DNA of 64,000 bases, taken from sequence record ON528738. One strand, 5' to 3'. Origin of the DNA: Shigella phage ESh28. The translations under genes were made by a program, and so were the position numbers. A model generated the notes under the pieces. The model saw nothing but the letters and a program-made list of their open reading frames with translations. It was not told where the DNA came from and did not search any database. How positions within the stretch are numbered: the stretch's first letter is position 1; each line of letters starts with the position of its first letter. Shown here in pieces: positions 19,697 through 21,340 of the stretch.

Positions 19697-20277
19697 TGAT
19701 TAAATTGGTATTCGCTTATTCTCCAACTAAAACGGTCGAAGGCTTTAATGAATTAGCATTCGGTTTAGGTGATGGTTTACCATGGGGACGAATTAAAAAG
19801 GACCTCCAGAATTTTAAAGCTCGTACCGAAGGTACAATTATGATTATGGGTGCTAAAACGTTCCAGTCATTATCTACATTACTTCCCGGTCGTAGCCATA
19901 TTGTGGTGTGTGACCTTGAGCGTGATTATCCTGTAACTAAAGACGGCGATTTAGCACATTTCTATATTACTTGGGAGCAATATATAACTTACATTTCTGG
20001 CGGCGAAATTCAAGTGTCAAGCCCTAATGTACCATTCGAGACTATGCTTGACCAGAATTCTAAAGTAAGTGTAATTGGCGGGCCTGCTCTGTTATATGCT
20101 GCGTTACCTTATGCAGATGAAGTAGTTGTTTCTCGCATCGTTAAAAGGCATCGTGTTAATTCAACGGTTCAATTAGACGCAAGTTTTCTTGATGATATAA
20201 GCAAGCGTGAAATGGTTGAAACGCATTGGTATAAAATAGATGAAGTAACAACCCTTACGGAATCAGTATATAAATGA
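19696..20277 (+). CDS. frd: dihydrofolate reductase
   Basis: 193 aa; C-terminus ...[19 protein letters not shown] as recalled for T4 Frd. Confidence 0.85.
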
Positions 20278-20480
20278 GCAATAAATTAAAAGTTAAGGAT
20301 GTTCCTAATGCTATGGCCCTTTTTATTTGTAGGCAGATGCATCAAGGGCCTATGACACCAAAACAATATCTTAAAGGTGAGCGTTCTTTAGGATTTACTC
20401 GCAAAGCAAAACAAATGGTTAAATTAGGATATAAGCCTAACTTTGCCAAATATCCTTCTACATATTCTTGGATGAACTAA
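20274..20480 (+). CDS. hypothetical basic 68-aa protein located between frd and td
   Basis: ATG overlaps frd stop (ATGA); its TAA overlaps td ATG (TAATG); Lys-rich; no family recognised. Confidence 0.45.
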
Positions 20481-21340
20481 TGAAACAATACCAATTTTTA
20501 ATTAAAGATATCCTGGAAAATGGCTACAAAACCGATGACCGAACAGGCACAGGAACAATTGCTTTGTTCGGTACTAAATTACGCTGGGATTTAACTAAAG
20601 GTTTTCCTGCAGTAACAACTAAGAAGCTCGCCTGGAAAGCTTGCATTGCTGAGCTAATATGGTTTTTATCGGGAAGCACAAATGTCAATGATTTGCGATT
20701 AATTCAACATGATTCGTTAATCCAAGGCAAAACAGTTTGGGATGAAAATTACGAAAATCAAGCAAAAGATTTAGGATACCATAGCGGTGAACTTGGTCCA
20801 ATTTATGGAAAACAGTGGCGTGATTTTGGTGGTGTAGACCAAATTATAGAAGTTATTGATCGTATTAAAAAACTGCCAAATGATAGGCGTCAAATTGTTT
20901 CAGCATGGAATCCAGCTGAACTCAAGCAGATGGCATTACCACCTTGTCATATGTTCTATCAATTTAATGTTCGTAATGGATACCTTGACCTTCAGTGGTA
21001 TCAACGATCAGTAGATGTTTTCCTCGGTCTTCCATTTAATATTGCATCATATGCTGCGTTAGTTCATATTGTAGCTAAGATATGTAATCTTATTCCGGGA
21101 GATTTGATATTTTCTGGCGGTAATACTCATATCTATATGAATCACGTAGAACAATGTAAAGAAATTTTGCGTCGTGAACCTATGGATTTATGCGAATTAC
21201 AATTAAAATTCCCAGATGAATTTGATGAATGGGACACAGAATCACAGGTATTTTGGTTGAGTCAATTCGCAAAGCCGCATAATTTTGTTCTTAACGACTA
21301 TGTATCTCACCCGCCAATTAAAGGAAAGATGGCGGTATAA
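20480..21340 (+). CDS. td: thymidylate synthase, uninterrupted (no intron)
   Basis: 286 aa from ATG 20480 ([31 protein letters not shown]...); continuous ORF; track start 20468 is TTG. Confidence 0.9.

Follow-up and report, generated by a model that had tools for sequence, protein, structure and literature searches.

In phage T4, the genes for dihydrofolate reductase (frd) and thymidylate synthase (td) overlap directly by 4 nt (frd at 145109-145690, td ending at 145112). In Shigella phage ESh28 (sequence record ON528738), of which a stretch of 64,000 nt was analysed (the window), a small open reading frame lies between these two genes. Is this a gene that was slotted into a coupled operon, where did it come from, and what would it do to the coupling? 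The original prediction was of a lysine-rich frame of 68 codons that overlaps frd by ATGA and td by TAATG, at a junction where frd and td of T4 overlap directly. Both parts are correct. In alignment, the window has an extra 206 nt relative to T4, exactly at the frd/td junction, and the two agree fully over the final ~97 nt of frd, so T4 lacks precisely the 206 nt that fill the junction. The frame, which we will call ORF68, comprises 68 amino acids and a stop codon, and two copies of AATGA, 206 nt apart, mark its ends (Table 1). The region around ORF68 is 100% identical to Shigella phage Sf21 (Tequatrovirus), whose GenBank record already includes ORF68 as a "hypothetical protein" (gp226).

Table 1. 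Features around the frd-td junction of ON528738 (positions in the window).
Feature	Position	Strand	Basis or remark
frd (dihydrofolate reductase), 193 aa	19696..20277	+	97% amino acid identity to T4 frd; Sf21 annotation
Left junction AATGA	20273..20277	+	ORF68 ATG (20274-20276) overlaps frd stop TGA (20275-20277) as ATGA; no difference from the T4 frd/td junction to this point
ORF68, small basic accessory gene (PHROG 9550; Sf21 gp226)	20274..20480	+	ORF, profile match, homologues
Right junction AATGA	20479..20483	+	ORF68 stop TAA (20478-20480) overlaps td ATG (20480-20482) as TAATG; sequence
Tract ~98% identical (nucleotides) to Dhakavirus JS98, IME281 and IME341	20272..20527	+	ORF68 plus ~48 nt at the 5' end of td
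td (thymidylate synthase), 286 aa, intronless here	20480..21340	+	ORF; Sf21 annotation

ORF68 is evidently a genuine small protein-coding gene, beyond what chance would give. We conclude this because the whole 206-nt interval is a single open frame (estimated P ~0.005 for AT-rich random sequence); because dN/dS is 0.14 relative to the homologue from Klebsiella phage Marfa, which has 81% amino acid identity; because the profile of PHROG 9550 matches ORF68 from end to end (E = 1.3e-45, 154.5 bits, residues 1-68 against positions 1-68 of 68); and because there are distant homologues, at 30–45% identity, in unrelated large phages. The differences from Marfa number 13, 7, and 23 at the first, second, and third codon positions, which is an excess at third positions. 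PHROG 9550 was the sole family matched in our search of PHROG. That the frame is open by chance, or that the 206 nt serve as a non-coding RNA element or spacer, might seem plausible for an ORF that is short, AT-rich, and without a known domain, but this is almost certainly wrong: it is already contradicted by the dN/dS, by the third-position excess, and by homology at the protein level, and an RNA element is argued against by the fold z-score of +0.25 (shuffled sequences fold as well) together with the lack of any credible Rfam match in the region.

The frame is not intact, or not annotated in full, in every relative. In phages ACG-C40 and IME339 (353-481 of the locus in each), only a 42-aa version with an internal start is annotated, and the full frame is open. 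In phage sb4 (401-562 of the locus), ORF68 is apparently shortened and is annotated as 53 aa. An IMG/VR contig (L008, 893-1097) has a frameshift in an A-run, which is either a pseudogene or a sequencing error. And one cluster of the family (P0009) has a 5-aa insertion.

Using tblastn, we found ORF68 in 237 phage records. It is at least 90% identical in 134 of these, from Tequatrovirus and Dhakavirus phages of E. coli, Shigella, and Yersinia; 60–81% identical in about 30 records from phages of Klebsiella, Enterobacter, and Serratia; and ~40–43% identical in 72 records, mostly from Phapecoctavirus (phAPEC8-like phages). This search cuts both ways for the original prediction, which would be undercut if T4 and its relatives had the same ORF. 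T4 does lack ORF68, but the records with at least 90% identity are many and the gene occurs in at least five T4-like lineages. When we compared the ORF68 profile to 1.8 billion representative proteins, only 10 credible clusters were found, with lengths of 70–96 aa. (One additional cluster was a repetitive, eukaryote-like artefact.) A second, word-indexed search gave ~40 clusters of the family at 90% identity, and the family comprises 11 clusters at 50% identity. All of the contigs that we inspected around members of the family are phage-like.

In T4-like phages, ORF68 is usually found just upstream of td. A homologue lies directly 5' of td, with an overlap of 1–4 nt, in Tequatrovirus, Dhakavirus, Marfavirus, Kanagawavirus CIP9, and Serratia phage 4S. 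The junction with td is TAATG in Marfa and 4S as well, and is a 4-nt overlap in CIP9. In Marfavirus, CIP9, and 4S, one or two more small genes lie between frd and the ORF68 homologue. In Phapecoctavirus, the homologue is found within a block of small hypothetical genes, with td not nearby, and the divergent metagenomic members sit in tightly packed arrays of small genes. Across these distant contexts, we did not find a conserved partner or neighbor for ORF68. ORF68 does not differ from the other members of PHROG 9550 (Sf21 gp226, SHFML-26 gp61, and Marfa gp177): the length is equal and, in the T4-like phages, so is the position 5' of td. The family lacks an assigned function.

For the junction in other phages, we took an evenly spaced sample of 60 of the 624 records matched by positions 20100-21340 of the window, and inferred the class of each junction from the span of its match. 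ORF68 was present in 15 of the 60 (11 Tequatrovirus and 4 Dhakavirus-like). A different insert, about 210 nt longer and so of the size of the gene described below, was present in 28. Only four had the direct junction of T4 (two records of T4 itself, JEP6, and ECO07P3); another two were unclear and 11 were uninformative. In IMG/VR we found just 13 frd loci. The alternative insert encodes a protein of 117–124 aa, which is named td.1 in the record for T2H. td.1 is at least 90% identical in 363 records, and many Klebsiella phages have a relative with ~30% identity in the frd-td interval. Our results show that the frd-td junction of T-even phages is a three-allele polymorphism (td.1, ORF68, or direct overlap). 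td.1 is the commonest allele, ORF68 accounts for about one fifth of records, and the direct overlap of T4 is the rarest.

Like ORF68, td.1 of T2 is a small accessory ORF between frd and td that is polymorphic among T-even phages, and genes of its type co-occur with ORF68 in Marfavirus, Kanagawavirus, and 4S. The two are unrelated in sequence. For td.1 and for the 117-aa gene upstream of ORF68 in Marfa, the sole PHROG match is PHROG 1928, and in Marfa, CIP9, and 4S a gene of this family and one of PHROG 9550 stand in tandem in the interval from frd to td. td.1 of T2 is followed by an untranslated spacer, so it does not overlap td, and the SD-like AAGG before td is slightly stronger than with ORF68 (-4.0 vs -3.1 kcal/mol). 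In addition, a 12-nt repeat, in which the start of td is duplicated, bounds the T2 gene. More broadly, the td.1 allele is flanked by a direct repeat, TAAATGAAA[T/C]AA (at 6576-6590 and 6985-7000 of locus L004, and also in L005-L007): immediately downstream of the frd stop codon, a second copy of the initial 9 nt of td (ATGAAACAA) occurs as ATGAAATAA, which forms a mini-ORF of two codons. The arrangement resembles the scar that an insertion would leave in a T4-type junction.

Two BASEL records label td.1 as a homing endonuclease, but we found no nuclease domain and no other Pfam domain in td.1 or in the PHROG 1928 gene of Marfa. Nor does ORF68 go exclusively with the td intron, an idea that we rejected: both ORF68 and td.1 are found in phages that have this intron and in phages that lack it, so neither is tied exclusively to homing by I-TevI. 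Three phages (vB_EcoM-G28, FL18, and 101112UKE3-1) have frd-td spans that fit none of the three alleles, with or without the 1016-nt intron, the excess being ~240–445 nt and +320 nt. These may reflect shortened td introns or another variant of the junction. In Marfa, at about 2560-2640 of the locus, an out-of-frame fragment upstream of the td.1-like gene encodes GRFVKHGSKLYFSPEHEKSYE, which repeats a motif (ITGRFVKQGSEINFKP) from the C-terminal part of the td.1-like protein. The fragment may thus be what is left of a td.1 copy that was duplicated or replaced.

Other differences from T4 lie on both sides of the junction. Between the homologue of frd.1 and frd, where T4 has just a ~70-nt gap, the window has two small ORFs of 119 aa (19095-19454) and 85 aa (19439-19696), which are gp229 and gp228 in Sf21. 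The 85-aa ORF ends with TAATG over the start of frd, the same style of overlap as in ORF68. Within td, residues 1-183 are 97% identical to T4, versus 72% for residues 184-286, and the 3' end (21183-21340) carries a haplotype other than T4's in the C-terminal part (about residues 232-270). Many Tequatrovirus records match the window just to query position 1083 (~21182 in the window), which marks a second mosaic boundary, within td. The Sf21 record from 132000 to 146000 covers ~15.6–29.6 kb of the window. In this part of Sf21, td and nrdB are both intronless, as compared to T4, and we found neither mobE or nrdB.1 between nrdA and nrdB nor I-TevI or I-TevIII.

The ORF68 allele, along with ~48 nt of the 5' end of td, was recently exchanged between Dhakavirus and Tequatrovirus. 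We conclude this because Sf21 and the Dhakaviruses JS98, IME281, and IME341 are ~98% identical from 20272 to about 20527, versus ~75–85% in the frd and td flanks. Similarly, the synonymous divergence between Sf21 and Dhakavirus is 0.08–0.17 in ORF68 and is saturated (dS > 3) in td. The 5' haplotype of td that accompanies ORF68 in Tequatrovirus is of the Dhakavirus type, and is present in Dhakavirus QL01 as well, which lacks ORF68. It differs from the haplotype of T4 and of the td.1 alleles (MKQYQDLIKDIF...). Tequatrovirus thus seems to have acquired the allele from a donor resembling Dhakavirus. So an inserted gene with overlaps kept on both sides, as originally predicted, is a fair description of the difference from T4, and in Tequatrovirus the gene does look imported, but the insertion is not peculiar to the phage of ON528738. 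Among eight Tequatrovirus copies of ORF68, the donor-like tract ends at varying positions on the right, in keeping with homologous exchange, and the exchange would most simply have occurred by recombination through the conserved flanking genes. On the left, frd is T4-like to within 3–10 nt of the ORF68 start codon in all eight, and recombination through frd alone does not predict such a sharp edge.

We also considered that the direct overlap of T4 might be derived: an ancestor could have had a td.1-like gene and ORF68 in tandem, with the Tequatroviruses losing one or both by deletion between short repeats. Such a tandem persists in Marfa, CIP9, and 4S, where the identity of ORF68 (60–81%, for Marfavirus, Kanagawavirus, and 4S) is similar to that of td (73–75%), as expected after long residence. 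Furthermore, recombining the two copies of AATGA recreates the T4 junction exactly. However, in Tequatrovirus the 5' haplotype of td that is linked to ORF68 is unlike that of T4 or of the td.1 alleles, so the T4 junction does not derive by simple deletion from the ORF68 allele that Tequatrovirus has today. Further T4-like loci (L012 and L014-L016) also have a direct overlap without either gene, which does not favor this scenario. Overall, we consider a derived T4 junction to be somewhat unlikely.

Another possibility is that ORF68 enters and leaves at AATGA by illegitimate recombination between short repeats, without long flanking homology. AATGA was originally proposed as the repeat used for insertion, and it is indeed shared by both junctions. 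Between T4 and Sf21, presence or absence of the 206 nt is precise and bounded by AATGA. The same precise edges are seen between QL01 and IME281 or JS98, with near-identical flanks (98–100% over ~100 nt on each side for QL01 and IME281). The left edge is sharp in all eight Tequatrovirus copies, and a direct repeat, albeit a longer one, bounds the td.1 allele too. But the AATGA match is weak evidence for insertion, because it is largely forced by the overlaps of stop and start codons: ATG makes up three of its five bases, and the overlapping TGA or TAA fixes each outer A at one of the two junctions. ATGA and TAATG overlaps also occur at neighboring genes and in other genera, where the junctions of the frd-td interval are ATGA, TAATG, or a short spacer instead of AATGA on both sides. 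And the shared tract extends ~48 nt into td, with ends that differ among phages, as expected from homologous exchange. In the sequences we compared, the sharp left edge is the sole feature that favors insertion at a microhomology, and we think this origin is unlikely.

We now return to the exchanged gene and to how it might be expressed. In the interval 20274-20480 we found no promoter-like or terminator-like site. Among frd, ORF68, and td, only frd has a reasonably strong Shine-Dalgarno match: the estimated energies of pairing with the anti-Shine-Dalgarno sequence are -7.3 kcal/mol for frd, -3.5 for ORF68, and -3.1 for td, whose match is the weak UGGAUGA. ORF68 therefore has neither its own promoter or terminator nor a good ribosome-binding site, and the sequence upstream of its start is exactly the context that T4 uses for td. 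Because of this, we propose that ORF68 is read from the frd-td early mRNA by termination and reinitiation. Ribosomes that have translated frd, as the first cistron of a coupled run, would end at UGA and restart at the overlapping AUG of ORF68 (ATGA, 20274-20277), and those that end ORF68 at UAA would restart at the overlapping AUG of td (TAATG, 20478-20482). ORF68 would then be a relay cistron between two folate/thymidylate enzymes. This serial coupling of the three genes on the early transcript is likely, and td probably depends on reinitiation after ORF68, because td has just a weak SD-like match of its own.

Overlaps of stop and start codons in T4, such as UAAUGA at nrdA/mobE, have been taken as suggestive of translational coupling (PMC2988022). 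Overlapping pairs of T4 genes (ATGA at frd/td, UAAUGA at nrdA/mobE, and genes 44/62; PMC2988022) resemble those described here in the type of overlap and in having a weak or absent Shine-Dalgarno match for the downstream gene. The difference is that here two overlaps occur in series, with a putative relay cistron of 68 codons between two enzymes. We also considered that ORF68 might be either a minimal cassette that enters and leaves T4-like genomes by recombining via AATGA at stop/start overlaps or a td-linked relay cistron that, through its product or through being translated, tunes the output of thymidylate synthase. We see this pair of readings as decidedly unlikely.

The ORF68 protein (7.9 kDa) is very basic, with a pI of 10.3 and 10 lysines and three arginines to one aspartate and one glutamate. 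With only close homologues as input, AlphaFold2 gave a model with a pLDDT of 62, which rose to 86 once divergent members were added (30 diverse family members in all). The latter model is a compact three-helix structure with predicted helices at residues 13-24, 29-39, and 43-49 and a C-terminal tail that packs back. Conserved positions in the family include K4, K6, P11, R20, K34, F41, M48, L51-G52-Y53, and P55. Foldseek found no significant similarity between this model and the PDB (E > 4), including no similarity to a solved helix-turn-helix domain, and in BFVD it matched only its own family. Comparing the ORF68 profile to the sequences in PDB gave chance matches alone (E > 0.3). There was no meaningful match to Pfam for ORF68 or for 30 family members (at thresholds of E ≤ 1 to 10), no nuclease domain of the GIY-YIG, HNH, or LAGLIDADG types by Pfam profiles, and no match at E ≤ 10 to the defense and anti-defense families of PADLOC-DB. 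Two GenBank records of ORF68 are labelled "DUF4858" or "flagellar biosynthesis protein", but there is no corresponding match to Pfam. We did not find any paralogues within the 64-kb window, and our literature search found nothing about ORF68, td.1, or PHROG 9550.

Our best guess is that ORF68 is dispensable, because it is missing from T4, T2, and Dhakavirus QL01, is frameshifted in L008, and is apparently shortened in sb4. Because the protein is small, charged, and predicted to be helical, our best guess as to its function is an early protein that binds nucleic acid or a host protein, with an accessory role in host takeover or host range; we favor such a binding role over that of an enzyme or a mobility protein. 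Alternatively, since ORF68 is strictly next to td in Straboviridae, its role could be connected with td: it might act together with, or regulate, thymidylate synthase or the phage's complex for dNTP synthesis. This would explain why ORF68 is constantly joined by overlap to the start of td, in five T4-like lineages and despite variation in what lies between frd and ORF68. However, it seems inconsistent with the homologues in Phapecoctavirus and in metagenomes, which lie among unrelated small early genes away from td. Furthermore, td works without ORF68 in T4, T2, and QL01, and the td protein is nearly the same across the alleles except for a few N-terminal residues. We rank this role lower and consider it very unlikely.

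Does ORF68 belong with the known mobile genes of T4-like phages? Like the free-standing homing endonuclease genes (seg and mob), ORF68 is an optional ORF between conserved T-even genes, with a patchy distribution and with lateral exchange in tracts that resemble co-conversion, and seg and mob genes often overlap the upstream gene as well. But ORF68 has neither a GIY-YIG nor an HNH domain, is far too small at 68 aa, and is predicted to be all-helical. In 2010, Arbiol, Comeau, and Krisch reportedly described how small early genes of T4-type phages shuffle as modules (PeSL cassettes). In these cassettes, as with ORF68, small early ORFs are transferred as units from one T4-type genome to another. 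Unlike the PeSL cassettes, ORF68 has no flanking early promoter or stem-loop that we could find, and it is embedded by codon overlaps within an operon.

Taken together, the explanation that we think is probably right is that ORF68 is a genuine accessory gene of PHROG 9550, located 5' of td at a three-allele locus, exchanged between Dhakavirus and Tequatrovirus, translated as a termination-reinitiation relay, and encoding a dispensable early binding protein. It is an already-annotated accessory gene at a polymorphic locus, which is ordinary plasticity of T4-like genomes and not a new kind of element, and its relevance outside of phage comparative genomics is slight. What our analysis adds is that the direct overlap of T4 is a rare allele among T-even phages, that two unrelated small genes compete for or share the frd-td slot, and that the ORF68 allele crossed between genera recently. 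PHROG 9550 is conserved from T4-like phages to Phapecoctavirus, so assigning it a function would be a modest gain for the catalogue of phage early proteins. If either the recombining-cassette or the td-tuning reading were true, then the frd-td junction would be a tractable model for how packed operons accept genes without breaking coupling. The textbook frd/td overlap of T4 is the exception, and the junction is a small hot spot for two unrelated accessory genes. The tract around ORF68 is a clean case of the exchange of ~250 nt between genera, and ORF68 itself would be a clean natural case of a gene slotted into a coupled operon with the coupling signals kept on both sides.
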